A stretch of DNA of 32,000 nucleotides from Methanocaldococcus jannaschii DSM 2661 (lineage in GTDB: Archaea; AGJL01; Methanococci; Methanococcales; Methanocaldococcaceae), in the NCBI RefSeq assembly GCF_000091665.1, contig NC_000909.1, positions 674,048 through 706,047 of the forward strand, in the 5' to 3' direction. Below, in pieces: positions 7,373 through 31,727 of this stretch (the stretch's first letter is position 1; each line of letters opens with the position of its first letter). The notes under the pieces were generated by a model. That model ran no database searches. It saw nothing but the letters and a program-made list of their open reading frames with translations, and was not told the origin of the DNA. Made by a program: the position numbers and the translations under genes.

Positions 7373-8107
7373 TTATTTTTTTAGGGCTTTTTCCACTACC
7401 TCAAATGCAATATAACCAGCCTTATGTAAAATAGTGTCTCCTAACTCTTTATCCATCTCCATACTGGCTAAACATGGATAGTTGTGGTGGGCATTTGCAA
7501 TCTCTTCCTTTAAATCATCTATAGCCTTTCCTTTCAATCTTTTGGCTATATAATAGGTTTCCCCACAGGGAGCAGAGATTTTAACCTTAACATCTTTAAT
7601 AAGGCCATTTTCAACTTCTATCTCCAATTCTGGCTTTCCTATCTTAAAGTAGTCAATAAATTTATTTATATATTCATTACCCTCTTTCTTCTCCAATGAA
7701 CAGAAGGGTTTTGGGTTTTCGAACTCAATATTATAGTTGCTGCAAACTCTCTTTAAATCTCTCCTCAATGCCAAAGACAAATCATGTGGTGTTTCAGAAG
7801 GAACAATTAAAGCTTTATATCCCTTTTCTTTTAACAGTAGAGGAAGTTCATACAACAAATCTTCATGTAGTTGAGCTATACAAATATCCCCCTCTGGGAG
7901 TTCTGGAAGGTAATCGTAAGGGTTATCAACAAACTCCTCATAAACTTCCTCAATAACGATATTTTTCACATTATTCTTAAAAGTCCAGTTTCCTCTGCAA
8001 TTGTAACAATCATCACAAATTCTACAAAAATCTGGTTCATTCAAAAGGTTTTTATAGAATTTCTCCATTCTTTGATTATTTTTGTGGTAAATAAAAACTG
8101 CCCTCAT
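7373..8107 (-). CDS. DUF166-like protein with Cys-rich N-terminal segment (from memory, historically annotated as thymidylate-synthase-like in methanogens; function unproven)
   Basis: Track ORF is 7373..8155. The likely start is MRAVFIYHK (ATG 8105-8107). Contains CRICDDCYNCRG. Family assignment is from memory only. Confidence 0.5.
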   Translation of the reverse strand: MRAVFIYHKNNQRMEKFYKNLLNEPDFCRICDDCYNCRGNWTFKNNVKNIVIEEVYEEFVDNPYDYLPELPEGDICIAQLHEDLLYELPLLLKEKGYKALIVPSETPHDLSLALRRDLKRVCSNYNIEFENPKPFCSLEKKEGNEYINKFIDYFKIGKPELEIEVENGLIKDVKVKISAPCGETYYIAKRLKGKAIDDLKEEIANAHHNYPCLASMEMDKELGDTILHKAGYIAFEVVEKALKK

Positions 8108-8161
8108 AAACTCTCCCCTACAATTTTTATAAAAAGAATTGATGTTTAATACCAAAAATTT

Positions 8162-8605
8162 TTAAACTTTCTTAAATATTAACTTCACTTTTTCTTCAGT
8201 TTCTGGAACTACATCTGATAGCATCAATCTGCAGTTATTACTCACACTATAAATTTCTGAAAGCAAATACATAAATGGACATACATATGGCTTTAAGTTT
8301 TCTTCCATTAATTTTTTGAGGAAGAGGTCTAATGTGGGATTTATAACTTCAAATATTACTTTTTTATCTTCTTCAACAATATTCAAATCCTCAGATAGCC
8401 CAAAAGTATTCACAAATAAATTTTTAATCTCCTCATTACTCATGTTTTCCTTTATAAAACCCAAATCTTTAAGTAGTTTTATCATCTCATAAGATGCTCT
8501 CCTTCCTAAAACCTTTCCTCCATCCCCCATAACATCATATATTGCCTTATTTATGCTGTAATAAAGAGCAGAGACAAATAAACTATCAATTCCTTTTTTG
8601 TTCAT
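8162..8605 (-). CDS. Small soluble protein, possibly a V4R-type ligand-binding domain
   Basis: Track ORF is 8162..8641; the likely start is MNKKGIDSLF (ATG 8603-8605). The V4R assignment rests on overall sequence resemblance and is tentative. Confidence 0.4.
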   Translation of the reverse strand: MNKKGIDSLFVSALYYSINKAIYDVMGDGGKVLGRRASYEMIKLLKDLGFIKENMSNEEIKNLFVNTFGLSEDLNIVEEDKKVIFEVINPTLDLFLKKLMEENLKPYVCPFMYLLSEIYSVSNNCRLMLSDVVPETEEKVKLIFKKV

Positions 8606-8648
8606 GATATCAATCCCAAAAATACCTCTACTACATACCAATTATATT

Positions 8649-8981
8649 TTAAAACAAAATAACATTCCCTAAAGCCAATATAAACATCATTCCCATTAAA
8701 GCTAAATGAGCTGAATATATTCCAGTATTTTGAAACTGGGTCTTTAATATATTGCATATAGTTGGGCAAACTGTTAAAGGAGTTATTACTTGAAATGCTA
8801 TTGCTAAATAACCTATTATATTATTGCTTATAAATAATGACGCCAATGTTAATATAAAAGCTATCATTAAAGATGCAAAGTGTGGCATTAACCTCATTCC
8901 TGTCAATCTAAATGTGGCAAATCCTGAAAGCATTGCTCCAAATATTACAGATAGAGAAACTAAACTTATTATCTCGTTCAT
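8649..8981 (-). CDS. Small multi-pass membrane protein
   Basis: Likely start is MNEIISLVSL (ATG 8979-8981, GGTGA at 8986-8990). Three to four hydrophobic helices. Confidence 0.5.
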   Translation of the reverse strand: MNEIISLVSLSVIFGAMLSGFATFRLTGMRLMPHFASLMIAFILTLASLFISNNIIGYLAIAFQVITPLTVCPTICNILKTQFQNTGIYSAHLALMGMMFILALGNVILF

Positions 8982-8995
8982 TATCTCACCCTTTT

Positions 8996-9823
8996 TTATA
9001 ACCAAACTGGTCTAACATTTGGTTTTGATAGATAGTTTAGAAATGTTGGTGCTCCAGCAATCTCAAAACCTTCCTCTAAGTTTTTCTCATTAATTCCTCT
9101 AAACTCTGCACTCAACTCACAAACATAAATCTTAACCCCTTTACTCAAAATATCCCTAACTAAATCTCCTAATTTTGGAAATGCTGGATGCTTAACTCTA
9201 TCACATTCTCCTTTTAAAGCCAAACTTGCCCCATCCATCATTAAGAATATTGTTGGCTTTAAGTTCATTTTTAAGGCAACATCTGCCATCATGAATGTTG
9301 CATAAGCCTTTTCAGCATTTCCTGTTCCTGTTGTGTTTATAATGAAGAGTTCATCAATCTTTGTTACCGCTGCTTTTTCTTCTTTCTTCTCTCCCTTTTT
9401 AACCAATATTCTGTAAGTTCCGTCTCCTTTATCTTCAACTTTTATTATCTCATTGCCCATTCCCTTCAATCCTTCAGTTAAATCAGTTAAGGAATTTTTT
9501 CCACAGATGATTTCTAAAATCTCCCCATTCTTCATTTTTGATAACATGTCAGAGACCATCATTATAGGTCCTGGACATGTAGCTCCAACAACATTGATGG
9601 TTTTATCTGCCTTAATCTCTCCAACGTAGATTTTAACAACATTTCCATCAACTTCATACTTTAGGTTGTATTTTTTTAATAACTTCTCAATGTCTTTTAT
9701 CTGCTCCTCCCCGTCAGTTTCAACAACTAAAATCCCCTCCTCTGTGTCATTTAAAATCATATCTATTAATAATGAAGGACTTCTCAATCCTTTAACCTTA
9801 AACTTTCTTATCATTCTTATCAC
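8996..9823 (-). CDS. TusA/SirA-like sulfur-carrier domain fused to a DsrE/DsrF-like domain
   Basis: The CPGP motif in VVGATCPGPIMMVSDMLSKMKNGEILEI is the TusA signature. The C-terminal half (FIINTTGTGNAEKAYATFMMA...KIYVCELSAEFRG) resembles DsrE-family proteins. Confidence 0.7.
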   Translation of the reverse strand: MIRMIRKFKVKGLRSPSLLIDMILNDTEEGILVVETDGEEQIKDIEKLLKKYNLKYEVDGNVVKIYVGEIKADKTINVVGATCPGPIMMVSDMLSKMKNGEILEIICGKNSLTDLTEGLKGMGNEIIKVEDKGDGTYRILVKKGEKKEEKAAVTKIDELFIINTTGTGNAEKAYATFMMADVALKMNLKPTIFLMMDGASLALKGECDRVKHPAFPKLGDLVRDILSKGVKIYVCELSAEFRGINEKNLEEGFEIAGAPTFLNYLSKPNVRPVWL

Positions 9824-10020
9824 CTATGTCAATATTATGCACAAGGATTGTATAAAAAAATTATAAATTAATAATTCACGGTTGTGTTATATCTATGAAC
9901 AAGTATTAACACTCATAATATATAAACCTTTCGATTAAAAGTTTTTAAAATTATTGAGGTTTTACTAAAAACAATAAAAACAAAAGTTATCATACTTTCA
10001 AAATTTAAATATATAATTAT

Positions 10021-10776
10021 TTATAATCTATAAAACCCCTTCGCATTCTTATAAACTGAGGCAATTATCTTTTCCTCATCAACACCAATATTTTTCATAT
10101 ACAACTTAGTTCTTGGTAGTGCATAAATATCCGCCTTCAAACTACCCAAATCACTACTTAAAATGAATTTTTTGTTGTAATTTTTAATTATCTCTGCGGC
10201 TTCTTCGTGGGTTAGCTTCATTGACGGTTGGACAGTTAAACCAACATAAACATCCCTATCGATTAAATCAACTGTCTCCTTATTTATATGGTCAATCATA
10301 ACTAAGCTATCTTTTATTTTAACTTCATCTAAAATCTTTAAAATTTCAATTAATGCCTCTTTTTTGTTCTTTTCTGGTGTATGGATAATTATTGGCATAT
10401 TATAATCTTTAGCTAAATATAACTGCTCTCTCAAAAGGTTCTTCTCATCCTCTGTTAGATAATGCAAACCAGTTTCTCCAATAGCAACAACGTTCTCATT
10501 ATCTAAAAACTCTGGAAGTTTTTTTATTAAAACCTCCCAATTCTTTGGATACCCCATAGGATGAACTCCAACTGCTACTTTAACTTCAACACCAGCCATC
10601 TCTCCCCTCTTAACCTCTAAATTAATCAACCTATCCCAGTGGTCTAAATAAACCTCTGGAGTACTCATTTTATATGGGTCGTGAGCACAGGTTATAATTG
10701 TCTCAATTCCACTCAATGCCATTTTTTCCAAATCTTCAAAGCTCCTAACATCTAAGTGAGTGTGGGCATCTATCAT
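10021..10776 (-). CDS. TatD-family metal-dependent hydrolase
   Basis: MIDAHTHLD N-terminal HxH motif, internal GETGLHY and HTPE, and a C-terminal SSD motif, consistent with a TIM-barrel amidohydrolase-type fold. Confidence 0.8.
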   Translation of the reverse strand: MIDAHTHLDVRSFEDLEKMALSGIETIITCAHDPYKMSTPEVYLDHWDRLINLEVKRGEMAGVEVKVAVGVHPMGYPKNWEVLIKKLPEFLDNENVVAIGETGLHYLTEDEKNLLREQLYLAKDYNMPIIIHTPEKNKKEALIEILKILDEVKIKDSLVMIDHINKETVDLIDRDVYVGLTVQPSMKLTHEEAAEIIKNYNKKFILSSDLGSLKADIYALPRTKLYMKNIGVDEEKIIASVYKNAKGFYRL

Positions 10777-10785
10777 CCTATCACC

Positions 10786-11814
10786 TTAATTTATTTTGTC
10801 TTTGAATAACTCTCCACTATAAACTTTGTTTATCGTTTTTATTAAAGTTACTATCCAAAAGAAGAACAACAACCAATATAACCCAAAGCCTATGTAATCA
10901 ACTATCTCAAACCCAAAGATTTTATAAACCAAGTGTGTTGAAGCAATATAAACCCCTAATGGGAAGATGAATGCCCACCATGACATTGCGTAGGGTAGTT
11001 TTAGCTTTTTAACGTAATAGAGAGTCATGATTATAGCCATCAAACTCCACCATAATCCAAAGCCCCAGAATATGAAGGAGAAGATATAGAATGGTTCTTT
11101 TATAGTTATGAATGGGGAATTATTCACCATGTTTATTAAGGCAACAATTCCAGCCCCTATTGGCCCCAAGTTAATCCATACGGTTGGAGCCATTGCTGAA
11201 GGTAGAGGATGATGCAGTATAAACCTATAAATCACAACTGCTAATAAAGCTAAATATAAGAAGAACCCGGCACCCCAACCAAAGTAATTAATAAGAACCG
11301 TTAATTCATGCCAAACTCCAGTTAAATGAGGCATTATCAAACTCCCGGCAATTGGAATAACTATCAAACCAACCGGTGGAATATACCAACCCGGATTAAC
11401 ATGGTCTAACTTTATACTCTCAGACTTAAACATATAAAACGGAACTATCAAACTGAATAAAAACATGCCAATAGCACCAAAAACCCAGAAGATTTTCCCT
11501 AAAAAGAGGTTATTTTTTATTAATATGAAATCAATACCCAAAACAAGCATAGCCACAGCCACAGTAGGACTAAATGAACTTAAAACTGGATGCTTCAACT
11601 CTGCAATCATATTTTTTGGATACTTTACCCATCTCAAAATCCACAACATTAAAAATACAAAAAACAGCAGTATATTAAAATAAAACAATAAAAATGATAT
11701 ATCTTTTAATATTGGTAAGTATTCAGAATAAAACAGACTCGTTACTGCCAAAACACCAGTTCCCATTACAGCGGCAAACCATGACGACTCAAAATTTTTT
11801 ATATAGCTTTGCAT
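10786..11814 (-). CDS. TehA/Mae1 (TDT) family anion/C4-dicarboxylate transporter-like membrane protein
   Basis: The 342-aa ORF has about 10 hydrophobic helices. Family call comes from overall resemblance and memory of this locus. Confidence 0.6.
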   Translation of the reverse strand: MQSYIKNFESSWFAAVMGTGVLAVTSLFYSEYLPILKDISFLLFYFNILLFFVFLMLWILRWVKYPKNMIAELKHPVLSSFSPTVAVAMLVLGIDFILIKNNLFLGKIFWVFGAIGMFLFSLIVPFYMFKSESIKLDHVNPGWYIPPVGLIVIPIAGSLIMPHLTGVWHELTVLINYFGWGAGFFLYLALLAVVIYRFILHHPLPSAMAPTVWINLGPIGAGIVALINMVNNSPFITIKEPFYIFSFIFWGFGLWWSLMAIIMTLYYVKKLKLPYAMSWWAFIFPLGVYIASTHLVYKIFGFEIVDYIGFGLYWLLFFFWIVTLIKTINKVYSGELFKDKIN

Positions 11815-11837
11815 ATTTTCACCAATTAAAAATAATT

Positions 11838-12203
11838 TTAAAAATAGGGCTTTTTAGTTAGGAAATACAGAAACCTTTCATCATCAGATAACGCATGGAT
11901 AACTGCCTGCCTAACTCCAAAATTAACTCCTAACTTTTTAGCTAAAAATTTCTCCAACTCAATGGTTTCTTTTAGAATCTCTATAACATCTGCGTTTGTA
12001 TCAACCTCTGCCTTTATGTTTGGCTTTTCATTGAAATAGATGAGATACTTCTCATACAAAATCTCCAAGTTCTTCATCTCAACATCAAATAAATCCTTAA
12101 AAATTCTACCCTCATATTCTTCAACGGATTTAAATTTTGCAATCATTGATATTTTTATCTTATTTTCTAATATTTTAGCCAAATATTCTTTTATTTCATC
12201 CAT
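11838..12203 (-). CDS. Hypothetical helical protein
   Basis: The 121-aa ORF has typical codon composition and sits in a co-directional string. No recognisable motif. Confidence 0.5.
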   Translation of the reverse strand: MDEIKEYLAKILENKIKISMIAKFKSVEEYEGRIFKDLFDVEMKNLEILYEKYLIYFNEKPNIKAEVDTNADVIEILKETIELEKFLAKKLGVNFGVRQAVIHALSDDERFLYFLTKKPYF

Positions 12204-12212
12204 AATTTCACC

Positions 12213-12563
12213 CTATTCACATTTAATTGGGTCTTCTGGTGCATTCAATTTCTTTGGATGTGGTGCTTTTACAACAAAAAATTCCAAAATATCAGAATTT
12301 ATGTTTTGGATAAGCATTTTTACATTAAACGGAACATACACAATATTTCCTTCTTTGTAATTATGTGGTTCTTGATCTTCTAATGTTAGTGTCATCTCTC
12401 CTTTAATTATTATTAAATGAACGTAAGAGTTTGAATAATGCTTTGGCATCTGCTCTCCTCTTGGTAAGACAATATGGTTGATCTGGACATGTTCAGTATT
12501 GACAAGTTTTTCAACAACCTTTGTTTTAGCGTCTCTTTTAAACTCATAGACCTTTTCTATCAT
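12213..12563 (-). CDS. Cupin-domain protein
   Basis: LPRGEQMPKHYSNSYVHLIIIKGEMTL...GNIVYVPFNVKMLIQN matches the two-motif cupin pattern. Confidence 0.7.
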   Translation of the reverse strand: MIEKVYEFKRDAKTKVVEKLVNTEHVQINHIVLPRGEQMPKHYSNSYVHLIIIKGEMTLTLEDQEPHNYKEGNIVYVPFNVKMLIQNINSDILEFFVVKAPHPKKLNAPEDPIKCE

Positions 12564-12760
12564 TTAATCACCCATATAAAACACATATTTAAAGAATATT
12601 TTTTATAAATGCAACTGAATTTTAACCTAATTTGCTAATTCAATTAATCAATTTTGCTGATTTACAATCTTATAATTAATTATAATATATAAAATAAAAA
12701 AAATGAAAAAATAAAAGATAAAATTAAAAATTAAAGGTTATTTTGGATTTTATATTATAT

Positions 12761-14407
12761 TTACCCAACTAATCTTTTAATATCTTCATCAACTGTTGAG
12801 ATCGTTGAGATTCCAAACTTCTCAACTAAAACTTTTGTCACATTTGGTGATAAGAACGCTGGTAGTGTAGGGCCTAATACTATATTCTTAACTCCCAAGT
12901 AAAGCAAAGCTAATAATACAGTAACTGCCTTTTGCTCATACCATGAGATGTTATAAGCGATTGGAAGTTCATTTACATCGTTTAAGCCAAATGCATCTTT
13001 TAAAGCCAGTGCAATTTTAACTAACGAATAGCTATCATTACACTGTCCAGCATCTAAAACTCTTGGAATTCCATCAATGTCTCCCAAATCTAATTTAATA
13101 AATCTATATTTTGCACATCCACATGTTAATATAACAGTATCTTTAGGCAGTTTTTTAGCAAATTCAGTATAATACTCTCTTGTTTTATGCCTTCCATCAC
13201 ATCCGGCCATTACAACGAATTTCCTTATTTTTCCACTTTTAACTGCTTCAATTACTTTATCTGCCAGTGCTAAAACTTGGTTATGAGCGAATCCTCCAAC
13301 AATCTTACCATTTTCGAGTGGTGTTGGTGGTTTGCATTTTTTAGCGTGCTCTATAACCTCTGAAAAGTCCTTAGTTCCATCCTCTTTTACTGGGATTCTC
13401 TTTAAGCCAGGATAGCCAACTTCGTTGGTTACATAAACCCTATCTTTATATGAGTCCTTTGGTGGAACTAAACAGTTTGTCGTCATCACTATTGGACCGT
13501 TGAATTTCTCAAATTCCTCTCTTTGGAACGGCCATGAACCTCCATAATTTCCAACGAAGTGCTCATATTTCTTAAAGAATGGGTAGTAGTGGGCTGGCAA
13601 CATCTCACAGTGGGTGTAGATATCAACTCCTGCATCCTTACTTTGCTCTAATAATTGCTCTAAATCTTTTAAGTCGTGACCACTAATCAATATTCCTGGT
13701 CTGTCTCTAACTCCCAAATTAACCTCTGTTATTTCTGGATGCCCATAGGTTTCAGTGTTCGCTTTATCTAATAATGCTAACGTTTCTACTGCATACTTTC
13801 CTGTCTCCATTGCTAAATTAAATAACTCATCAGCATCTTTGCTATCAACGATTTTAGTGAATGCTTTAATTATAAACTTATGAATGTCCTCATTGTTGTA
13901 GCCGAGATGCATGGCATGGCTTAGATAAGCTCCTATTCCTTTAATTCCATAAGTTATAAGCTCTTTTAATGATCTTATGTCTTCATTATCCTCTGCTAAG
14001 ACGCTAACTTCTTTTGTATTGGCTAAATTTATTAGATCTTCATCAGTTTCGTAAGCCCAAGTAGCACAGTATGGAAGTTCTTCTTTATTTAAATTATTTT
14101 TTTCTATAATTTTTTCTCTTAAAGCGACTCCTTTCTTTATCCAATTTATTACATCTTTATCATCAAAATTGACGTTAGTTATTGTTACAAATAATGCTTT
14201 TGGAATGTAATCCATAACTTCATCATCCAAGTAATTGCCTTTATCACAGACATAGCATAAACCTTTTATAGTATAAATCAATAAATCTTGGAGGTTTGCC
14301 ACAACATCATCTTTTCCACAGACTCCTTTTATTGTACATCCTTCATTTTTTGCTGCCTCTTGACATTGGAAGCAGAACATTTTTGTAGGTCTTGGTTCAA
14401 ATTTCAT
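12761..14407 (-). CDS. hcp: Hybrid-cluster (prismane) protein / hydroxylamine reductase
   Basis: N-terminal CxxCx8Cx5C ([21 protein letters not shown]). The 548-aa length and conserved blocks ([36 protein letters not shown]) are typical of Hcp. GGTGA box at 14412-14416. Confidence 0.9.
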
Positions 14408-16429: not shown

Positions 16430-16939
16430 TTAGAATTCTTTAACATGTTTTATAATATCTTCCAAAATCTTCTTCGCCTTCTCCAAATCATAATCAACAG
16501 TTGCCTCCAACTCCAAAAATAGAACTTGCAGACTTGGAGAATACTTACCCTTATTAATCAAATACTCCCTATACTCCCAAACTAATTTTTTAAATCTCTC
16601 AAGTTTTAACTCTTTAATACAATCCTTAGCATAATCCCAAACGGTAGATTTTCCTATGCCTAAAATATTACCAATTTCTCTAACAGAATAGCCCTCAATA
16701 ATTAATTCATGAATCTTTTTAACAGTTTCATCATCAACTTTTCTCTTCCTCCCTCTCTTTGCATTCTCAACCTCTATAAAAATGCCTTTTTTCTTTAAAT
16801 ATTCCAGTTTATAAGCCATTTTTGGATGTTCATAAACAGACTTTGGAAGTTTTAGCAAAACCAAATCTTTTTCTCTCAGTTTTACAATCTTATTAATCTC
16901 ATCCCATCTTGGAATCTTAGATATTTTTATCTCAATCAT
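16430..16939 (-). CDS. HTH DNA-binding protein (resolvase/Hin-type HTH in the middle)
   Basis: KRGRKRKVDDETVKKIHELIIEGYSVREIGNILGIGKSTVWDYAKD. Its start overlaps the stop of the upstream recombinase gene by 8 nt. Confidence 0.55.
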   Translation of the reverse strand: MIEIKISKIPRWDEINKIVKLREKDLVLLKLPKSVYEHPKMAYKLEYLKKKGIFIEVENAKRGRKRKVDDETVKKIHELIIEGYSVREIGNILGIGKSTVWDYAKDCIKELKLERFKKLVWEYREYLINKGKYSPSLQVLFLELEATVDYDLEKAKKILEDIIKHVKEF

Positions 16940-17603
16940 CTAAATCCCCAATATTTTTTAGAATCTCTTTTGCCAGTCTGCTTTGAGTGTAAGTTTCAAT
17001 GTAGTTTATGTTCTTATGCTTGGTTATTTTTGCTAAGACTTGTGCTGGGATGCCATGTTCTCCCAAGTAAGTAACATAGGCATACCTCAGGGAGTGAGTA
17101 TTAATTCCATAATTTTTATAAAGCCAAGCTCCAAATCTCTTAACAATCTTTTTCTTTGCTTTTAACTTTTCATCCATTGTTAGCTTTTCATCAATCTCCT
17201 TTTTAATGTCTAAAAAAACATCCCTAACCATTTCAATATCCTCTTTTTTAATGCATTTTGGTATAATCAGCTCTCTAAACTCCCAATCCTTCCTCTTCTG
17301 AGTCCTAACTTTAACAGTTATCCTCTCATTCCAATTAAGATTGTCTATATTGATGGCTATGTTTATCATCCCAGCTATAGCCTCCCAAATCCTACAACCA
17401 TTCCTTAATTGGAATAAAAAAGTTATAAGATAAGCTATTCTCTTGTAATCATCTTCATAAAGTAATTCCTTGTTTTTCAATTTCTGCAAATCTTCTTTAA
17501 ACATTTTATAGGTTTGTTTGTAATCAATGCCTTTATCCCATGTGCCGCTATGTTTTTTAATACTTTCAGAAGGTTTCGATAGATTCCAATCCCATATCAT
17601 CAT
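16932..17603 (-). CDS. Tyrosine recombinase / integrase (compact, catalytic domain only)
   Basis: Catalytic signature: R in NGCRIWEA, HxLR in THSLRYAY, H/K in ITKHKN, nucleophile Y in YIETYTQ. Confidence 0.75.
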   Translation of the reverse strand: MMIWDWNLSKPSESIKKHSGTWDKGIDYKQTYKMFKEDLQKLKNKELLYEDDYKRIAYLITFLFQLRNGCRIWEAIAGMINIAINIDNLNWNERITVKVRTQKRKDWEFRELIIPKCIKKEDIEMVRDVFLDIKKEIDEKLTMDEKLKAKKKIVKRFGAWLYKNYGINTHSLRYAYVTYLGEHGIPAQVLAKITKHKNINYIETYTQSRLAKEILKNIGDLDD

Positions 17604-17691: not shown

Positions 17692-18384
17692 GTGAATAAA
17701 TTGGTAAAGAAGGTTTATGGTGTTGGTGTAGGTGTTGGAGACAAAAAGCTATTAACATTAAAGGCATTAGAGGTTTTAAAAAAAGTAGATAAAATCTTTG
17801 TCCCAGTATCTAAAAAGGGGAAGAAATCTATTGCCTATGAAATTATAAAGGATTATGTTGATGGGAAGAATATTGAAGAACTTTTATTCCCCATGATTAA
17901 AGATAAAGAGAGGCTAAAAAAATACTGGGAAAATGCTTTAGAGAAGGTTTTAAAAGAAGATGGAGAAGTAGCTATAATAACCATTGGAGACCCTACATTG
18001 TATAGCACATTCTCCTATGTCTGGAAACTTTTAAAAGAAAGAGGGGTTGAGGTAGAGATAGTTAATGGCATTTCATCAATATTTGCCTCTGCAGCTGCTT
18101 TAAATATTCCATTAGTTGAAGGAGATGAAAAACTCTGCATTTTACCTCAAGGAAAGGATTTGGAAAAATATATTGATGAATTCGACACTATAATTATTAT
18201 GAAGACAAAGAATTTAAATGAGAAGCTATCAGTTATAAAAAATAGAGATGATTATATAATTGGGTTGGTAAAGAGGGCAACTTTTGAAGATGAAAAAGTA
18301 GTAATTGGTAAGTTAGACGAAATCAACTTTGATGAATTTAATGACTATCTCTCCTTAGCTATAATAAAGAGGTTTAAGAGATGA
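17692..18384 (+). CDS. cbiL: Cobalt-factor II / precorrin-2 C20-methyltransferase
   Basis: Tetrapyrrole methylase N-terminus VYGVGVGVGDKKLLTLKALEVLKKVDKIFVP, then ITIGDPTLYSTFSY. GTG start per the track. Confidence 0.8.
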   Translation: MNKLVKKVYGVGVGVGDKKLLTLKALEVLKKVDKIFVPVSKKGKKSIAYEIIKDYVDGKNIEELLFPMIKDKERLKKYWENALEKVLKEDGEVAIITIGDPTLYSTFSYVWKLLKERGVEVEIVNGISSIFASAAALNIPLVEGDEKLCILPQGKDLEKYIDEFDTIIIMKTKNLNEKLSVIKNRDDYIIGLVKRATFEDEKVVIGKLDEINFDEFNDYLSLAIIKRFKR

Positions 18385-19442
18385 AAATAATAAAAGCAGT
18401 TCCAGAAGAGTTTTTAAATGGATTGTATTTAATTCCAACTGACAGAGGGAATTTATTGGAATTAGATGAAAACGGAAATTTTGAGGTAGTTAATAATATA
18501 GCCATAATTAGGGTTTTAGCAACACCAAATTTAAAAAAGGCTATAGCCAAGATTGTCTATCAAATTAAAGATAAATACTACTTATTTAAAAATCATAAAA
18601 AAGCAAACTGGCTGAAAAATCTCTTAGAATATATGAACAATAAGATAGAGTTCGATAAATATTATAGAGCCAAAAAGGCATGGTATAGAGGAATAGGGGA
18701 TTTATTTAGAAATATAAGAAAATGGGAATTTGAAAAAGTTGTTGGAAAGATAATCTCACTATTAAAGGTTTTGAATCCAATAGTTGTCTTTGATGTTCAT
18801 GATATAAGAAAATGGCATTATAGGAAGAGTTTTATAAACTTTGTTAAAGAATTAAGGAAAAATAGTATAAGTGTTGTAATAAGATATCCAATTGACTGTC
18901 ATGAAGAGATTAGGGAGATTTTTCCAGAAGGCATTTTAAATACAAAAGCAACCATAAGATACTTTGCAAAGGTTCATGGTTATTATATAAGCGATAGAGT
19001 GGCTGAATATCTCCTAAAAATAACCAATGGAAACTTAGAAACAATATATTTGATATTAAGACACTCAAAAAGAGAGATAAAAAATCTTAGAGAGCTAAAA
19101 ATTCCATGGCTTAGGATTTTACCATATATAGTAGATTCGAAATATCGAAAATTGGTTGAAGTTATAATTGAACTAAGAAAGTTCAAAGTTGAAGATATTA
19201 CTTATAAAGTTAATTACAAATTATCAACCATATACAGATATTTAGATGAGTTGGTTGAGTTAGGAATACTGACAAAAATAAAACATAAAGGCAAAGTAAG
19301 ATTTAAAATAAGATTGAACAGAAATATTTTATTAACTCTCCTCAAAAAATCTAAAAATAACTATTTGCATTGGTTCTCTATTTTCTTGTTAGATAGCATA
19401 CCTTGGGATATACAGATTTTCGAATTTTCGAAAAGTATATAA
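18381..19442 (+). CDS. Winged-helix protein with a possible degenerate AAA+-like core (no intact P-loop)
   Basis: ATGA overlap with the cbiL stop. C-terminal wHTH is YKLSTIYRYLDELVELGILTKIKHKGKVRFKI. It has a Walker-B-like PIVVFDVHD and a lid-like ISDRVAEYLLKITNGNLETIYLILRHS. No GxxxxGK[ST]; YRGIGDLF may be a vestige. Confidence 0.5.
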   Translation: MKIIKAVPEEFLNGLYLIPTDRGNLLELDENGNFEVVNNIAIIRVLATPNLKKAIAKIVYQIKDKYYLFKNHKKANWLKNLLEYMNNKIEFDKYYRAKKAWYRGIGDLFRNIRKWEFEKVVGKIISLLKVLNPIVVFDVHDIRKWHYRKSFINFVKELRKNSISVVIRYPIDCHEEIREIFPEGILNTKATIRYFAKVHGYYISDRVAEYLLKITNGNLETIYLILRHSKREIKNLRELKIPWLRILPYIVDSKYRKLVEVIIELRKFKVEDITYKVNYKLSTIYRYLDELVELGILTKIKHKGKVRFKIRLNRNILLTLLKKSKNNYLHWFSIFLLDSIPWDIQIFEFSKSI

Positions 19443-19584
19443 TAATTAATAGTATTCATACTCAACTTAATGACAGTATTAATATTTATTGATTGTGTAA
19501 AGTTATGACAAAACTTTGTTTTCTTTTTTGGCATATAATTAATATTTTAAGAAACTTAATTTAAATATAAATTTCTTAAAAGGT

Positions 19585-19616
19585 TTTCGAATTTTCGAGT
19601 TACATGTATGTATATG
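19585..19616 (+). repeat. Left arm of the 32-nt inverted repeat
   Basis: TTTCGAATTTTCGAGTTACATGTATGTATATG, read directly from the sequence. Confidence 0.9.
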
Positions 19617-19928
19617 CAGAAAATCTTCGCCTAACTTAAAAAATGGTTGTGAATATCGCAAGCACAACTATTATACTATTGTACTTTTTTTCACAATATA
19701 AGTTAAAATAGTAAAAATTTTTTATTTTATATTTTAATATTAATTATTGTAAAATATTTCCAATAAATATTGTTAAAAAATGTTATTTTAAAAAAATAAA
19801 AATAAAAAAACCATAATTAGCTCTAAAACTCTAACGTTATACGTTTATAATACAAAATAGTGTATAATATCCTTTACTCTAATTTTGCGATAATTCGTTT
19901 TTCAGAAAAAGTTGTCCATTCTGTTGGT

Positions 19929-19960
19929 CATATACATACATGCAACTCGAAAATTCGAAA
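19929..19960 (-). repeat. Right arm of the 32-nt inverted repeat (31/32 identical to the left arm)
   Basis: The reverse complement of 19929-19960 is TTTCGAATTTTCGAGTTGCATGTATGTATATG. It lies 4 nt from the stop codon of the 175-aa gene. Confidence 0.9.
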
Positions 19961-19964
19961 TTCG

Positions 19965-20492
19965 TTAATCTTGATTTTTCAATGTTTTATAGAGCCGTTT
20001 CAAATAATCAATGTGTTTGCATGTATCACTCTGACAGATAACACACCACCAATAGCCTTTATTGCTTCTAAAAACATCACCTAAATGCTCTCCATTGGAA
20101 TCAAAGAATGAAAATACTATTCCTCCAAGTTTATCCTCTTTCCAGCTGATTTCAAACCCTATTTTATCCACTGGGTAATACTTAGTGGCAATTTTCTTTT
20201 TAGGTAATTGTTCGAAAACACTCGAAAAACTCAAATCGAATATTTCTGGAGCCAATCTTTTTAATATCGCCAATCCTTTTGATGTAAATGAATATAAAAC
20301 TTTATGTCCCGCTCTTTCTCTCTTCATTATATTTAGAGCCGAACATAGCCTCAAAAAAGAGCTTGCAAGACCTTTCGATATATTTAAATTTTCTGCGAGT
20401 GATTGTGGATAGGTTGTGCCACGTATTAACACATAATGTAAAATCGCCTTTCTAAATATAGTTGATACTATTTCATAAGGCAATCTTTCCAT
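19965..20492 (-). CDS. Winged-helix DNA-binding protein with C-terminal SWIM-like zinc finger
   Basis: wHTH: TYPQSLAENLNISKGLASSFLRLCSALNIMKRERAGHKVLYSFTSKGL. C-terminus: WWCVICQSDTCKHIDYLKRL (CxxC...CxH). GGGTG box upstream of the ATG at 20490-20492. Confidence 0.6.
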   Translation of the reverse strand: MERLPYEIVSTIFRKAILHYVLIRGTTYPQSLAENLNISKGLASSFLRLCSALNIMKRERAGHKVLYSFTSKGLAILKRLAPEIFDLSFSSVFEQLPKKKIATKYYPVDKIGFEISWKEDKLGGIVFSFFDSNGEHLGDVFRSNKGYWWCVICQSDTCKHIDYLKRLYKTLKNQD

Positions 20493-20581
20493 ATTTACAC
20501 CCAGTATTCCTAATAACTATTATTGTTGTGATTTTGTTTTGTTGATACTCAATTATATTTGACATACTCGTTTATAAAACT

Positions 20582-21049
20582 TTTGATTCATGGGATTGTT
20601 TTAACCCCTATGTGTTGGGTGTAGTAATACTAACATTTTAAGAACGTCTCTTTGAGTATGTTTCTATATTGTACCAATATTTATCTCTTTCTATTATTTT
20701 GTTGTTATATGCTATTTTTTACTAATAATTCTTAGATTTAATATACTGTTAATTTACATATAATCTTTGATTCATAGTTTTTTATTGGTTATATTATTTG
20801 ATTCACGATATCTTATTTTTAATATTTTGAAGCAATTCCTATGAGAAGAATTAAAATTAACTTTATTTCATTAGAATAATATATATATTATATTTAATTT
20901 CATTCAAGTTTATTTCTGAAAATAATAATCACTTATTCTATATGAAATATTGTTTGATTCATTAGATTTTTTAATTTTATTGTTTGATTCATGAGATTTT
21001 TAATAAACTTTATAATAAAACATTTAAATTTAAGAATAATTGATTCAAT
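20582..21049 (+). repeat. Array of six co-oriented TTTGATTCA(T) boxes in the divergent intergenic region
   Basis: Boxes at 20582-20591, 20766-20775, 20797-20806 (..CAC), 20953-20962, 20983-20992 and 21040-21049 (ATTGATTCAAT variant). The boxes at 20948-20971 and 20978-21001 sit in 24-nt repeats with one mismatch, 30 bp apart. A degenerate copy TTTATTTCATTAG lies at 20862-20874. Confidence 0.8.
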
Positions 21050-21179
21050 CTATCTTTCGATTTTTCGAAATCTATATAACGTTCTTAAGACAAAAGTTCG
21101 AAATCAATGGAAAATATTGTAGATAATTAGTAGATAATTAATTTAAATAAATTAATTTATATTTTATTGCGGTGGAAAC

Positions 21180-22409
21180 ATGGACCCAATAGAGTTTATA
21201 CAAAAATCTGCAAGCTCTATAGCAAGCACCATGCATAAATTAAAATTAAAATACAATCCATTTTCTGAAAAGCCAATAAGGGGAAATACAAAGTTTTTTG
21301 TAGGTAGAGTTAGCGAGTTAAGGGAAATTGGAGAAATTTTAGGTTCTGCATTGCATGGTAGTGTTGCTAACGCTGCAATAGTTGGAACTAAGGGGATAGG
21401 GAAGAGTTCAATGCTAAACATCATATACTATGCAACAAAAAAGCAGGGACATTGGGTTGTTGAGATGACTGCCTCTCAGGTAACACCAAGGCAGTTTTTG
21501 ATACAGCTCTTATACAATATATTAACTGAAAACATCATAACCATGAGTGGAACGATAAAATCTGATTACATGGAACATTCAAGTAGAATTTTAGATATGT
21601 ATAGGAAGTTAAACAACTATGGGGATAAAGTTCCTATCCACTATCCAAGGGAGAGGATTGAGAGGGATTTGGAATATCTAATAAATGAAGTTAAAAGTCC
21701 TGATAAGTTATGTATAATTTTAATTGATGAAGCTGACCAATTTGCAAAAAAGAGCTGTTTAAGTTTATTACAATTTTTCCACTCGTTTTTGTATGAAGAG
21801 GGAATTTTAACGTTTATGGCTGGTTCTCCAACATTGATGGATGATTTAACAAAGATATCTCCACCAATAAAGGATAGAATTCCAAAAATAATAAATATGC
21901 CTCCTTTATCAAAAGATGAGTCCTATGATTTAATTAGAAGAAGATTGGAAGATGCTCATATTGATGGAGCAGAGGAGTTTGAGCCGTTTACTGAAGAGGC
22001 TATTCATAAAATTGTTGAAGAGTGTGACGGAATTCCAAGAAAGATAATAATGACATGCTCTGAATCAATATCAATAGCTATAAGAAAGGGTTTAACTAAA
22101 ATAGATGAGAAGGTTGTTAAAGAGGCTATGCATTCTCTTGGCATTAGTGTAGGACATCAAATTCTAAACCACTTAACTCCTGCCCAATCAGAGATTGTTA
22201 GGGCAATGGCTGAGCTTGGAGGTTCAGCAACGGTAACACAATTAGCTGAATATTTAAAAAAATCACCAAGTACTATTGGAACTCATCTCTCTGACATCTA
22301 TGAGATGGGATATATTTATAAAGAAAGGGAAGGAAACAACGTATATTATAAACTATCTAAAGAACTTAGGGATGTCTTAATAGGTGAAGATGATGAATTG
22401 GAGATGTGA
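21180..22409 (+). CDS. Divergent Orc1/Cdc6-like AAA+ ATPase with C-terminal winged helix
   Basis: Walker A GTKGIGKSS, Walker B LCIILIDEAD, lid-like FTEEAIHKIVEECDGIPRKIIMTCSESISIA. C-terminal wHTH ATVTQLAEYLKKSPSTIGTHLSDIYEMGYIYKEREGNNVYYKLS. GGTGG box at 21171-21175. Confidence 0.7.
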   Translation: MDPIEFIQKSASSIASTMHKLKLKYNPFSEKPIRGNTKFFVGRVSELREIGEILGSALHGSVANAAIVGTKGIGKSSMLNIIYYATKKQGHWVVEMTASQVTPRQFLIQLLYNILTENIITMSGTIKSDYMEHSSRILDMYRKLNNYGDKVPIHYPRERIERDLEYLINEVKSPDKLCIILIDEADQFAKKSCLSLLQFFHSFLYEEGILTFMAGSPTLMDDLTKISPPIKDRIPKIINMPPLSKDESYDLIRRRLEDAHIDGAEEFEPFTEEAIHKIVEECDGIPRKIIMTCSESISIAIRKGLTKIDEKVVKEAMHSLGISVGHQILNHLTPAQSEIVRAMAELGGSATVTQLAEYLKKSPSTIGTHLSDIYEMGYIYKEREGNNVYYKLSKELRDVLIGEDDELEM

Positions 22410-23334
22410 TGTTCAAAATTTTGAGCCAGATGTTAAAATATCATTAACAAGAGTTGGAGTTACAAATCTAAAAAAACTTGTTAGATTAAAGAGAACAAAT
22501 AAAAGACCAATAATATTGTTATCTACGTTTGAGGTTTTTGTTAATTTGCCGAGTTCTCAGAAAGGAATACACATGTCAAGAAATCCTGAAGTTATAGAGG
22601 GAATAATAGATGAGGCTTTAGAGTTGGAGAGTTATGAGATGGAGACAATTTGTGAGGAGATAGTTAAGAGGTTGTTTGAGAAGCATGAATATGCCACAGA
22701 GGCAGAGGTTTTTATGGTTAGTGATTTCATGACTAAGGAGAAAAGCCCTATATCTGGGAAGTATTCCCAGGAGATTCACAAAATCATGGGTGGAGCTAAG
22801 GGAATAAAGAAGGATGATGAAATTGAATTAACAAAGATTGTTGGGGCCGAGGTTGTTGGTATCACTGCTTGTCCATGTGCTCAAAATTTAATAAAGGAGA
22901 TATGTATTAAAAACTTAAAGGAAAAAGGCTTTTCTGATGAAGATATTGATAAAATATTGGATTCTGTTATATTTGCCACTCATAATCAGAGAGGAATTGG
23001 TAGAATTATATTGGAAGTTCCTACCGGATATGATATTGAGATTATGGATATCATAGAAATAATTAAAAAATCCATGAGTGCTGAGATTCATGGAATATTA
23101 AAGAGAGCTGATGAAGCTTATGTTGTTGAACAAAGCCATAAAAACCCTAAGTTTGTTGAGGATTGTGTTAGGGAGATGGCTAAAAGGGTAGTGGAGAAAT
23201 TTAAACACTTACCAGATGAGACGAAGGTTTTAATTAGGCAGATAAATATGGAGAGTATTCATAGACATGACGCATTTGCTGAAAAGGTTGCTACATTGGG
23301 GGAATTAAGAAGAGAGCTTTTAAGCTATGAATAA
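22390..23334 (+). CDS. mptA: GTP cyclohydrolase MptA (FolE2/MptA family; first step of the methanopterin pterin branch)
   Basis: The track ORF starts at GTG 22384; ATGs at 22390 and 22393 are alternatives, and all overlap the upstream gene's end. Family motifs: QKGIHMSR, GITACPCAQ, THNQRG. Confidence 0.8.
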   Translation: MMNWRCDVQNFEPDVKISLTRVGVTNLKKLVRLKRTNKRPIILLSTFEVFVNLPSSQKGIHMSRNPEVIEGIIDEALELESYEMETICEEIVKRLFEKHEYATEAEVFMVSDFMTKEKSPISGKYSQEIHKIMGGAKGIKKDDEIELTKIVGAEVVGITACPCAQNLIKEICIKNLKEKGFSDEDIDKILDSVIFATHNQRGIGRIILEVPTGYDIEIMDIIEIIKKSMSAEIHGILKRADEAYVVEQSHKNPKFVEDCVREMAKRVVEKFKHLPDETKVLIRQINMESIHRHDAFAEKVATLGELRRELLSYE

Positions 23335-23380
23335 TTTCACGCTCTTTTTATTTAGCTGTTTATATTTTATAGGTGGTAAT

Positions 23381-24478
23381 TTGAAAGCTTTGGTTTTAGG
23401 TATCAACACAAGGCCTGTAGTTAATTCTCTTAAAAAATTAGGATTTTATGTATATTCAGTCTCTTACTACGCCCCAGAAGATTTAAATGCTGATGAGAAA
23501 TATTATTTGATAAATCCTTTAGTTCATGGAAGATTAAAAGAAAACTATGATGAAAACAAATTAATTGAAATAGCTAATAAATTAGCTGATGAAGTTGATT
23601 GTATCTTTATAACTTCAGGTGTTTTTGAATTCGAAAATTCGAAAATTCCAGGATGGGATAATGTTATAGGTAATGGGCCAAAAAAGATAAATGAAATCAG
23701 TAACAAATATAAAACATATAAGAAATTAAAAAATCTTGGTTTTAATATACCAGAAACTAAGAAAATAAACAATAAGACTCAATTATATAAATTTTTGGAA
23801 GAATTTAAAACCTGCATTTTAAAGCCTATCTACGGGAGTGGAGGAAGTATTTTAAAGATAGAATTAAATAACTTTGATGATGAGATAATTAATGAAATTA
23901 AGTTCCCAATTATTGCTCAGGAATATATTAGAGGGAAAAGTTTTAGTGCCAACTTTATAGGCAATACATTTATAACCTTTAACAAACAAATTATAATTAA
24001 GGGAATGTATGCTGGGAATTTAACTCCATATATTAATTTACCAAATAAGTTTGTTGAAATATTTGGTGAGGTTATAGAATCTTTTGAATTAAAAGGAATG
24101 AGTGGCATTGATTTTTTGATTAAAGATAATGGTCCTTATATTGTTGATATAAATCCTCGCATTTTAGGAACTTATGAGACCATAGAGATGAGTGCATCTC
24201 AAAATTTGGCAATGGTTTTGCTAAATAATAAGTATGCCAAGGAGATTAAACCAAGAAAAGTATATATAAAAAGAATATTGTTTGCTAAAGAGAAAATTAT
24301 CGCTAATATATCAAAAAGGGACTTTATACATGATATTCCAAAGAAAAATGCAGTTATAGAGAAAGGAGAGCCTATAGCTACAGTAATTGCAAAAGAAAAC
24401 ATTAAATCAATAATAAACAGTGTTTATGAGGAGTGTGCAGAGTATGAGAAAAGAAAAGAAGATAGAGAGAATATATGA
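23381..24478 (+). CDS. ATP-grasp domain protein of unknown substrate
   Basis: The track ORF starts at 23327. I favour TTG at 23381 (AGGTGG at 23371-23376), giving MKALVLGINTRP. ATP-grasp blocks: ILKPIYGSGGS, IAQEYIRG, MSGIDFLIKDNGPYIVDINPR. Confidence 0.7.
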   Translation: MKALVLGINTRPVVNSLKKLGFYVYSVSYYAPEDLNADEKYYLINPLVHGRLKENYDENKLIEIANKLADEVDCIFITSGVFEFENSKIPGWDNVIGNGPKKINEISNKYKTYKKLKNLGFNIPETKKINNKTQLYKFLEEFKTCILKPIYGSGGSILKIELNNFDDEIINEIKFPIIAQEYIRGKSFSANFIGNTFITFNKQIIIKGMYAGNLTPYINLPNKFVEIFGEVIESFELKGMSGIDFLIKDNGPYIVDINPRILGTYETIEMSASQNLAMVLLNNKYAKEIKPRKVYIKRILFAKEKIIANISKRDFIHDIPKKNAVIEKGEPIATVIAKENIKSIINSVYEECAEYEKRKEDRENI

Positions 24479-29717: not shown

Positions 29718-31727
29718 CTACAGAGTTACATCAATATCCAAATGCTCGGTTAGTTCCTTGTATCTATTTCTTATTGTTACTTCTGTCACTCCAGCAACTT
29801 CAGCAACTTCCCTCTGAGTTCTTCTACAGCCAAGAAGAACGCTTGCTATATATATTGCTGCAGCAGCAACACCAGTAGGGCCTCTACCGCTTGTTAATCC
29901 TTTTTCAGCCGCTTGTTGCAATATCTGTATAGCTTTGGACTCAACTTCCCCAGGCAATCCAAGTTCAGATGCAAATCTTGGCACATAATCAATTGGATTT
30001 GTTGGGGTTAATTTTATATTTAATTCTCTCGCTAAAAATCTGTAAGTTCTTCCAATTTCTTTCCTATCCACCCTTGATGCTTCGGCAATTTCATCTAAAG
30101 TTCTTGGAACTCTACATCTTCTGCAAGCAGCGTATATAGCGGCTGCAACAACTCCTTCAATACTTCTTCCTCTTATTAATCCTTTCTCAACAGCCCCTCT
30201 ATAAATTATAGCGGCATTCTCTCTTACATGTCTTGGTAGTCCGAGCTTTGATGTAATTCTATCTAATTCTGACAGGGCAAATGCTAAGTTTCTCTCTGCA
30301 GCATCACTGACTCTAATTCTCCTCTGCCATTTTCTTAATCTGTAGAGTTGGGCTCTCTTATTTGCAGATAAATCCTTTCCATAACTATCTTTGTTTCTCC
30401 AATCAATAACTGTTGATAAACCTTTATCGTGGATGGTGTTGTGTAATACAAATCCTCCAAATCCAGCAACGAAGTTTTCTGCATTTGGAACAGTTAAATC
30501 ATAGGCATATCCACTGGTTGGCTCTACCTTATTAATCTCTTTAATTTTTAAGAATATGAAATCAGAGTTTATAAGTTTTTCGAGTTTTCTATTGGTATAT
30601 ATATTTGTTATTCTCCTTACCTCATAAACTTCAATATCATTTATACTCTTTTTATTAATGGTGGCGTTTTCTTTTATTTGTAAAAGTAAGAATATAACAT
30701 CTTCAGCCAACTCCTTTGAGACAAATACTTTTGCATCTTTACCATTAAATATCCCATCTATGAATGATTTTTTTATTTCATAAGGAGATTTAAAGATTAT
30801 AGAGGGAATTCTTTTATTCTTAACTCTCAATTTTTTTAGTAAATTGATAATTTTTTTATTCTTTACTTCAATTTGAATATTTAAATCTTTACTATAGATG
30901 GTTATATCCGAATTCAAAGATTTGAAATAATCAATTGTTTCATTTATAAACTCTTTTTCATTGTAATCATAAGATAATACAATTTTTTTGTCATCATAAT
31001 AACCTTCCGCAATTATGTAACCCAATATTTTACTAAATTTTTTATCTATTTCAATATCTTCTTCAATATTCGGCAATTCTTTTGCTAAAACTAATATATC
31101 TCCAACTTTTAGCTCATCAACTCTTATTGGAACTACCTCATTATCTCTTATGGTAAAGACACTATGGCTTCTGGTAACTCTAACCTTTTTATTCCCTTCA
31201 ACAACTATTTCAAACATCTCACTAACTGGATGCCTTGAAACCTCCGAAACAGGCATGAATTTAAATTTGTAATTGCTGTTAAAGGCAATAACTTCAATAC
31301 CTTTACATTTTGCTATCTCTAAGATGCCCTCTCTTCTAATATTCTCTGAGTTTTCAATAATTTTATCTATAAGTTCTCCAATTTTAACAACTTTTATTTC
31401 TCCATTCTCTTTAATGATTATTGGTTCGTTGTAATCAACACTATAAGTCATAGGAGCTCCAACTCTACATCTTTTAATCTTTTGCTCATGGTCAAATGCC
31501 CTCCATTCTGGTCCAATATCAAATAATTTTTCTTTGATAACACATCCACATTTAGCACAGACTATTTCAGCCCTTTCATAATCTTTAACAACTTCTTTAC
31601 TACCACAAATTGGACAAACAATCTCTTCCTCTCTAACATTTTCTTCTTTTTTTTCAGATTTTTCAACTTTTGTTGTGAGTTTTTTTTCTTTTGTTGTTTC
31701 ATTTTCTTTGGTTTTGAGAGCCTCCAT
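29718..31727 (-). CDS. tfb: Transcription initiation factor B (TFIIB homolog) interrupted by an intein
   Basis: Zinc ribbon CPICGS...CAKCGC, B-finger/linker GPEWRAFD...RVGAPMTY, then [11 protein letters not shown] after the intein and two cyclin repeats. The track ORF starts at 31739; ATG at 31725-31727 (MEALKTKE) has GGTGTGG upstream. Confidence 0.95.
30438..31442 (-). mobile_element. 335-aa intein with LAGLIDADG homing-endonuclease domain
   Basis: Residues 100-434 of the track ORF: starts [10 protein letters not shown], has block B TRSHS and LAGLIDADG-like motifs [13 protein letters not shown] and [14 protein letters not shown]. It ends [10 protein letters not shown] followed by the +1 Thr. 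Confidence 0.9.

Follow-up and report, generated by a model that had tools for sequence, protein, structure and literature searches.

Archaeal replication origins of the known kind consist of inverted recognition sites placed around an unwinding element. According to the Ori-Finder-Arch preprint, an origin recognition box on one strand, a DNA unwinding element and a second box on the other strand, ORB(-)/DUE/ORB(+), are considered the minimal pattern for archaeal origins. The Methanococcales and the Methanopyrales are the archaeal orders in which neither a bona fide Orc1/Cdc6 protein has been recognised nor an origin mapped, and reviews call the initiation of replication there an open problem. 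For Methanocaldococcus jannaschii, three papers (PMC4009838, PMC3531139, PMC3914693) cite the sole origin proposal, the Z-curve prediction of Zhang and Zhang (2004) beside the gene MJ0774, whose product is published as Mc-pRIP and is presumed to be the initiator. The locus is thus a predicted origin already. Here we describe a 376-bp inverted-repeat unit at this locus, between the genes MJ0772 and MJ0773, in a 32-kb stretch of the M. jannaschii DSM 2661 chromosome (the window, 32,000 nucleotides; positions below are counted from its first letter). The open reading frames (ORFs) of 353, 175 and 409 amino acids in the window are identical to MJ0772, MJ0773 and MJ0774. We consider the unit most likely to be the core module of the Methanococcales chromosomal replication origin, of a non-canonical ORB(-)/DUE/ORB(+) type, with a probability of roughly 0.55, because it is real, single-copy and conserved across the order beside replication genes. 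The element, its recognition code, its order-wide architecture and an Orc1/Cdc6-like MJ0772 beside the MCM gene appear to be undescribed. The literature that we searched contained no mention of MJ0772 or MJ0773.

Anatomy and conservation of the inverted-repeat unit

MJ0772 ends at position 19442 on the plus strand and MJ0773 at 19965 on the minus strand, so the 522-bp gap between them is bounded by two 3' ends. A first-pass annotation of the window had given the same gene ends and had regarded so long a gap as unusual. In length it is not, since three other gaps in the window exceed 500 bp; it is the sole convergent one of the four. Within the gap, two arms of 32 nt face each other across 312 nt, the left arm (S2) at 19585-19616 on the plus strand and the right arm (S3) at 19929-19960 on the minus strand. 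As the same annotation had stated, they are identical at 31 of 32 positions. The match is not due to chance: none was obtained in 100 dinucleotide-preserving shuffles. A sequence profile built from 24 arms (profile R1) scored the left arm at 36.3 bits (E 1.4e-10) and the right arm at 38.7 bits (E 2.5e-11). The left arm starts 143 bp after the end of MJ0772, and the right arm stops 4 nt short of the MJ0773 stop codon; the complete unit occupies 19585-19960. The left arm is made up of an outer tandem, TTTCGAAT/TTTCGAG, which we call the S-box, then five variable nucleotides, and then an inner alternating pyrimidine-purine tract, CATGTATGTATATG.

The 312-bp spacer (19617-19928) is a candidate unwinding element. 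Its GC content is 20.6%, and the least stable 100 bp of the whole window, as calculated from nearest-neighbour free energy, lie inside it at 19704-19803 (6% GC; z = 3.6). The A-run near 19790-19812 is present as well. About 35 nt inward of each arm there is an inner box. The left one, GAATATCGCAA, lies at 19651-19661 on the plus strand; its inverted partner lies at 19885-19896 on the minus strand and reads GAATTATCGCAA as the reverse complement. The inward symmetry that the first-pass annotation had proposed holds for this pair of boxes, which is kept order-wide, and ends there: when the left half of the spacer was compared with the reverse-complemented right half, the two were not complementary (z < 2 in 12 of the 16 genomes compared). 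Inverted repeats around an A+T-rich region of low stability correspond to the layout of archaeal ORB/DUE/ORB origins.

The loci for comparison were gathered around the homologues of MJ0774, MJ0773 and MJ0772 and from a degenerate arm scan of metagenomes. In 16 genomes from four genera (Methanocaldococcus, Methanotorris, Methanothermococcus and Methanococcus), the orthologous convergent gap has this same arm pair as its best inverted repeat. The length of the unit ranges from 362 to 390 bp and is mostly 367-378 bp, and the GC content of the spacer is 11-25%; by comparison, the identity of the flanking proteins goes down to 33-49%. Fifteen of the 32 arm positions are invariant. The arm consensus, TTTCGRRTTTTCGAGTNNNATRTATRTATA, contains two TTTCGRR units in tandem, five free positions and the inner tract, in which the changes are mainly between G and A and the pyrimidine-purine alternation is kept. 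The inner box has the order-wide consensus AAATTATCACAA, found in most lineages, and is replaced by AATTATTCC in both boxes of Methanothermococcus and in the right-hand box of M. aeolicus. The spacer keeps its length across the order; its central part of about 200 bp varies freely yet remains A+T-rich. With profile R1, each locus yields two full-length arms, no more and no fewer, and in addition partial matches to the satellites. These sequence comparisons indicate that the element is under strong purifying selection across the entire order.

The two arms of one genome change together. Left and right arms differ on average by 2.7 positions within a genome, whereas between genomes the differences amount to 5.7 (left-left), 6.0 (right-right) and 5.9 positions (left-right); in 10,000 permutations, a value as extreme as the observed one never arose. 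For example, both arms read GCATATATG in M. infernus and CGAAGTGCATATATG in M. villosus, and TTCGGG is found in all sites of Methanothermococcus and M. aeolicus. The species-specific variants (GAAT, GAGT, GGGT) are common to the arms and to two further sites of the same orientation outside the unit, S1 and S4, which speaks for one reader of all these sites and not for base pairing. A protein reader shared by the sites, or homogenisation between them, is the simpler explanation of the concerted arms.

S-boxes and the replication-gene island

The S-box TTCGRNNTTTCGR, the outer half of the arm, occurs six times in the window against 0.01 expected, and all six copies are confined to 4.5 kb (19137-23643). 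Four of them lie outside the arms and had been overlooked in the first-pass annotation. S0 (19118-19149, minus strand; S-box at 19137-19149) consists of the S-box TTCGATATTTCGA followed by CTATATATGG and lies inside the coding sequence of MJ0772. It is kept in Methanocaldococcus, and Methanotorris, M. aeolicus and Methanothermococcus have equivalent minus-strand S-boxes within their MJ0772 homologues. S1 (19419-19445, plus strand; S-box at 19419-19431), with the S-box TTCGAATTTTCGA and GTATATAA, covers the last codons and the stop of MJ0772. It stands 167 bp upstream of S2, and in all five loci where it was measured this distance falls between 163 and 167 bp (the window and the comparison loci L008, L010, L011 and L014). 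The site is read as TTC GAA TTT TCG (FEFS) in M. jannaschii and M. infernus and as TTT CGG GTT TTC GAG (FRVFE) in Methanotorris and M. indicus. S1 is thus kept in two different reading frames across lineages, and the constraint therefore acts on DNA.

S4 (21056-21082, plus strand; S-box at 21056-21068) is composed of TTCGATTTTTCGA and CTATATAA and precedes the start codon of MJ0774 by about 110 nt. It is present wherever MJ0774 adjoins; the gap lacks it in the two species with a relocated MJ0774, M. indicus and M. infernus. Apparently, S4 is tied to the MJ0774 promoter. S5 (23631-23643, minus strand) is a perfect S-box inside the ATP-grasp gene, lacks the pyrimidine-purine tract and occurs only in Methanocaldococcus. 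Its membership in the system is doubtful, and it may be a by-product of the coding sequence. Sites S0 to S4 recur in other genera, and in three genera more S-boxes lie beyond the MCM gene, on its far side. The 21-kb M. indicus locus that carries MJ0774 contains no S-box. Elsewhere in the window, 30578-30603 and 7710-7731 give borderline partial matches to the arm profile (E 0.02-0.03). Between S1 and S2, at 19488-19531 on the plus strand, there is a palindrome, TTGTGTaaagttatgACAAAA, followed by a T-run. It is kept across genera, as ATGTTTTGTGTAaaGTTATGACACAA outside Methanocaldococcus, and may act as a terminator, encode a small RNA or be bound by a protein. A tRNA scan found no tRNAs.

The genes around the unit form a conserved island. 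Reading on from the MCM gene, Methanotorris igneus, Methanococcus maripaludis and M. aeolicus have the MJ0772 homologue, the element and, on the opposite strand, the MJ0773 homologue; then follow an A+T-rich gap of 610-850 bp, the MJ0774 homologue and the genes of GTP cyclohydrolase, an ATP-grasp protein, TFIIE-alpha and an HD protein. The MCM gene is directly upstream of the MJ0772 homologue in three genera, at the loci L011 (1233-4342), L013 (1132-4248) and L014 (870-4109). Its position is taken by a 674-aa ORF in Methanothermococcus and by a tetrapyrrole methylase gene in Methanocaldococcus. In the window, overlapping minus-strand ORFs with HTH_7 (resolvase-type) and phage-integrase domains lie at 16430-17603, between the F420 ligase and tetrapyrrole methylase genes. 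They are near the position that MCM has in other genera and may be the remnant of an integrated element. In one complete M. aeolicus assembly (CP104873.1; L015, positions 989-14215 of the record), the locus is found less than 15 kb from the start of the chromosome record. This position may result from where the submitters chose to begin the sequence and is not evidence of function.

MJ0772 (18381-19442, plus strand) is an orphan protein found only in Methanococcales, with a predicted AAA+-like domain, a lid and a winged helix. For its AlphaFold2 model (predicted local distance difference test score, pLDDT, 82; predicted template modelling score, pTM, 0.75), the best PDB matches were 2qby_A, the S. 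solfataricus Cdc6/Orc1 on origin DNA (E 3.3e-4, probability 0.99), and 2v1u_A, the A. pernix ORC1-DNA complex, with RFC and ORC subunits next. Hda_lid is weakly matched by 5 of 10 family members, immediately ahead of the winged helix. The Walker A and B motifs are not intact: the degenerate P-loop position reads ATPNLKK(T/A), where the glycines are lost and the lysine is kept, and the Walker-B position reads VVFDVHD. Judging by the model, MJ0772 is probably an ATPase-degenerate protein of Orc1/Cdc6-type architecture. MJ0773 (19965-20492, minus strand) is a winged-helix protein, also restricted to Methanococcales. Its model is poor (pLDDT 66) and shows an N-terminal winged helix of ArsR/MarR type with generic matches only; the C-terminal domain with the invariant WWCxxCx4CxH motif looks like a zinc finger. 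MJ0774 (21180-22409, plus strand) is an AAA+ protein of a divergent Orc1/Cdc6 type that has a winged helix-turn-helix and is encoded 1.2 kb from the element. It matches the NCBIfam orc1/cdc6 model TIGR02928 with an E value of 7.5e-11, below the cut-off of the model.

The neighbouring gap, the origin reading and its rivals

The inverted-repeat gap is separated from MJ0774 by MJ0773, so it is not the gap adjacent to Mc-pRIP. That one (20493-21179, 687 bp) is A+T-rich too and is the published predicted oriC/ORB region. We take the published oriC coordinates to be 694,540-695,226, which also make 687 bp, the length of this gap. The in-silico skew work near the locus that the first-pass annotation had mentioned does exist: it is the prediction of Zhang and Zhang (2004), as cited in the three papers named above. 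The neighbouring gap carries six copies of TTGATTCA, all on the plus strand (20583, 20767, 20798, 20954, 20984 and 21040; span 20583-21047), and the inverted-repeat gap (19443-19964) carries none; the distribution is the same across 14 genomes. Five of the six fit the stricter form ATTCAY and stand at near-fixed offsets from the MJ0773 start codon in these 14 genomes of four genera, namely 92/276/307/463/493 in M. jannaschii and 88/270/300/456/486 in M. maripaludis. They make up two pairs, the boxes of each standing 30-31 bp apart, and one single box. On the minus strand, the gap has at most one box match per genome. With boxes on the same strand only, the neighbouring gap is therefore without the inverted pair that the minimal origin pattern requires. 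In the middle of this gap, at about 20838-20890, a block of about 50 nt (GAGAAGAATTAAAATTAACTTTATTTCAT.AGAATA.T.TATATA) with a TATA-like end is kept across genera.

The "Methanococcaceae ORB" motif of Ori-Finder 2, TT[TA][GT]ATTCA[TC][GA]AT... (PMC4164010), corresponds to the TTGATTCAY boxes of the neighbouring gap and not to the inverted-repeat gap. In a 2026 preprint, the oriC of M. jannaschii is said to conform to ORB(-)/DUE/ORB(+), and it is conceivable that the repeat had already been noticed there. By sequence, it is the inverted-repeat gap that supplies the ORB(-)/DUE/ORB(+) pattern at this locus, with a different motif.

An origin is expected beside an Orc1/Cdc6-type initiator and other replication genes, and the unit has this position, with the caveat that MJ0774 is unlinked in two species. 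In M. indicus, about 440 kb separate the element from the MJ0774 homologue, whose start comes 24 bp behind the stop of another gene, without an A+T-rich gap; in M. infernus, it is likewise not beside the element (the loci concerned are L009, 10001-11215; L016, 5381-7035; and L017, 5439-7052). Nevertheless, the arms are perfect in both species (33/33 in M. indicus and 32/32 in M. infernus) and the neighbouring gap retains its boxes; only S4 is lost. In M. indicus, the gap with the box array now abuts GINS23, L44e and S27e. The element is unchanged where MJ0774 has moved away and is therefore kept independently of the position of this gene. The first-pass annotation had the unit served by the Orc1/Cdc6-like gene 1.2 kb away. 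The gene is there, but for the same reason its service is only one option. As a reader of the arms, MJ0772 is an equally good candidate.

As for the origin itself, the earlier interpretation of the unit agrees with the layout of inverted sites around an A+T-rich core, the single copy, the order-wide conservation and the replication-gene island. It agrees less well with the published prediction, which lies in the neighbouring gap, and with the make-up of the arms, and several other observations also weigh against an origin core here. The arms are unlike canonical ORBs: with the consensus of ORB and mini-ORB (the TCCA-N-TGGAAA dyad with or without the G-string), we found 13 loose core matches in the window against 16.6 expected and none in either gap. 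In A+T-richness and in conservation of position, the neighbouring gap is the equal of this one, and it bears the published motif. Initiation could occur there, with the inverted-repeat unit in another role. The spacer centre is nearly matched in instability by several promoter gaps of the window. The local GC skew follows gene orientation, and a 32-kb window is too short to reveal a skew inflection. Dispersed copies were absent from the window, the metagenomes and the viral contigs, a scan that left the complete M. jannaschii chromosome outside. The E value of the MJ0772 fold match is modest, and its alignments are full-length but have a template modelling score of only about 0.2. A sequence link of MJ0772 to Orc1/Cdc6, sought with hhalign against the MJ0774 family, a PDB profile search and a profile search of 1.84 billion representatives, was not found beyond a weak winged-helix alignment. 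Finally, no experimentally mapped origin has been reported for any Methanococcales, and the M. jannaschii prediction was made in silico only; marker-frequency analysis has reportedly been tried before in M. jannaschii, which is polyploid, and was uninformative.

Two other readings take the repeat itself as their starting point. Terminal inverted repeats around an A+T-rich non-coding core, with an integrase-like ORF 2 kb away, might suggest a non-autonomous mobile element inserted between two genes, that is, a miniature inverted-repeat transposable element (MITE) or a foldback element, which the first-pass annotation had named as the alternative. However, the element occupies the same syntenic site in 16 of 16 genomes from four genera, so no presence/absence polymorphism was seen. 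The degenerate arm scan of metagenomes returned 14 loci, of which 12 are syntenic, being flanked by homologues of MJ0772 and/or MJ0773, and two are unrelated low-complexity sequences; viral contigs gave no arm match. No target-site duplication was present, as the flanks cttaaaaggt and ttcgttaatc have no common direct repeat, and fold-back symmetry is missing from the spacer. An exact 21-nt arm scan of species-representative genomes also gave no matches; it is not a valid test of copy number, because the arms of the relatives differ by 1-3 nt and M. jannaschii was not included. From the genomes, metagenomes and viral contigs compared, we therefore reject the mobile element, which has hardly any chance of being correct. 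It is scarcely more probable that the arms are base-paired, whether at the RNA level, where they would form the long terminal stem of a non-coding transcript or a stem for processing, or in extruded DNA, where they would form a cruciform. The identity of the arms within a genome is far above that between genomes, which is formally like compensatory change. But of the 41 arm-to-arm differences, wobble pairing would tolerate 8 on the plus strand and 14 on the minus strand; the other 19 fit neither strand, and therefore no strand-consistent pairing exists. The same lineage variants occur in S1 and S4, whose orientation makes them unable to pair with the arms as a stem, and a spacer of 11-25% GC with non-complementary halves is hard to reconcile with a structured RNA in hyperthermophiles. 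Rfam gave no match at permissive or gathering thresholds. A structured RNA with a terminal stem is thus rejected as well.

The remaining two readings concern the protein that would use the sites. The S-boxes may be operators of a local transcription factor (MJ0773, MJ0772 or MJ0774) controlling the replication-gene island and perhaps unannotated short transcripts. The arms would then be two convergent regulated promoters, or protein roadblock terminators at convergent gene ends, and not an initiation site. Archaeal promoters have a TFB recognition element followed by a TATA box, and a CGAAA-type sequence just upstream of a TATA box resembles them; S0, S1 and S4 are each followed by a TATA-like sequence within 3-7 nt, so this reading fits them too. 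It also accounts for S4 preceding MJ0774 and being lost once MJ0774 leaves, for S1 overlapping the MJ0772 stop and S3 standing 4 nt from the MJ0773 stop, each oriented like its gene, and for the conserved palindrome and T-run after S1. At the arms it does less well. The gap lies between two 3' ends and holds no conserved ORF and no known RNA, and the arm tract makes a poor TATA box because it retains G at the R positions (ATGTATGTATA). At 11-25% GC, an RNA transcribed from the spacer would have no structure in hyperthermophiles, and a simple operator leaves the spacing of about 312 bp, the inner inverted boxes and the freely varying A+T core unexplained. We regard operators as possible but unlikely. 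A site for chromosome segregation or organisation, similar to a centromere and bound by a winged-helix protein such as MJ0773, is improbable. Segregation sites are often near origins, the conserved, clustered and inverted binding sites would suit one, and the N-terminal domain of MJ0773 weakly matches ArsR/MarR winged helices including the pNOB8 centromere-binding AspA (E about 0.01-0.03, pLDDT 66). This resemblance is non-specific, however; no partition ATPase is conserved beside the element in the loci compared, and a long, length-constrained A+T core is not a known feature of centromeres.

If the unit is an origin core, as we prefer, we infer the following course of events. A highly divergent Orc1/Cdc6-type initiator, with MJ0772 and/or MJ0774 as candidates, would bind both arms in opposite orientations as they face each other. 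The outer S-box with its two tandem TTTCGRR units would be the likely winged-helix contact, and the inner alternating pyrimidine-purine tract, which should be easily deformed, would be directed into the spacer. An accessory factor, for which the winged-helix protein MJ0773 is a possibility, might occupy the AATTATCACAA boxes about 35 nt inward. The length-constrained A+T-rich DNA of about 225-312 bp between the boxes or arms would then melt, and MCM would be loaded there. The extra S-boxes S0 and S1 may serve cooperative assembly or form a barrier to transcription from the two convergent genes, and S4 at the MJ0774 promoter may couple the expression of the initiator to occupancy. A second module of this origin region would be provided by the neighbouring gap, where five phased ATTCAY boxes lie on the same strand. 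A bolder version, which we put forward only tentatively and consider rather doubtful, is that replication starts at the inverted-repeat unit and not in the gap adjacent to MJ0774, and that the unit is recognised by MJ0772, the ATPase-degenerate Orc1/Cdc6-like protein co-encoded with MCM.

Significance and comparison with known systems

The long-open question of how replication is initiated in Methanococcales becomes directly testable at this locus. A vague "origin near MJ0774" is replaced by a precise order-wide map. It shows the two full arms with their two inner boxes, the A+T core of constrained length, four to five S-boxes as satellites, the next gap with its five phased boxes, and three candidate binding proteins. 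Among these three is MJ0772, with its MCM linkage and its unreported Orc1/Cdc6-like predicted fold. The genetically tractable M. maripaludis bears the same architecture, and every item of the map can be tested there directly. The map also suggests that the current origin annotations for the order may span only half of the functional region. If the bolder version of the origin reading is true, an order said to "lack Orc1/Cdc6" would use a two-module origin and two extremely divergent initiator paralogues, and tandem TTTCGRR with a deformable pyrimidine-purine tract would be a new recognition code.

MITE and foldback elements share with the unit terminal inverted repeats around a short A+T-rich non-coding core. 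Unlike them, the unit is single-copy and syntenic across the order and has neither a target-site duplication nor internal fold-back symmetry. The WhiP-type origin, Sulfolobus oriC3, where inverted repeats surround an uncharacterised motif and the initiator is a winged-helix protein other than Orc, is similar in having an inverted-repeat module beside a lineage-specific winged-helix gene. However, its motif is TACTACTACTAC, MJ0772 and MJ0773 have no detectable relation to WhiP/Cdt1, and MJ0772 looks Orc1/Cdc6-like by its predicted fold. The published Methanococcales oriC (Zhang and Zhang 2004; DoriC; Ori-Finder 2) belongs to the same locus and has the same presumed initiator, MJ0774, and both gaps are A+T-rich and conserved across the order. 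In contrast to the unit, it lies in the next gap (20493-21179) with boxes on one strand, and the unit carries none of these boxes.

In its layout the unit resembles the archaeal Orc1/Cdc6 origins, such as Sulfolobus oriC1 and Pyrococcus oriC. In both cases, inverted repeats of a recognition type face an easily melted A+T-rich core, extra sites of the same type lie nearby, one of them at the promoter of the initiator gene, and the adjoining genes code for Orc1/Cdc6-like proteins and MCM. The differences are in the details. The repeats of the unit have neither the TCCA..GGAAA dyad nor the G-string and carry tandem TTTCGRR with a pyrimidine-purine tract instead. The unit also has a second, inner inverted box, a place between two 3' ends and extremely divergent candidate initiators.

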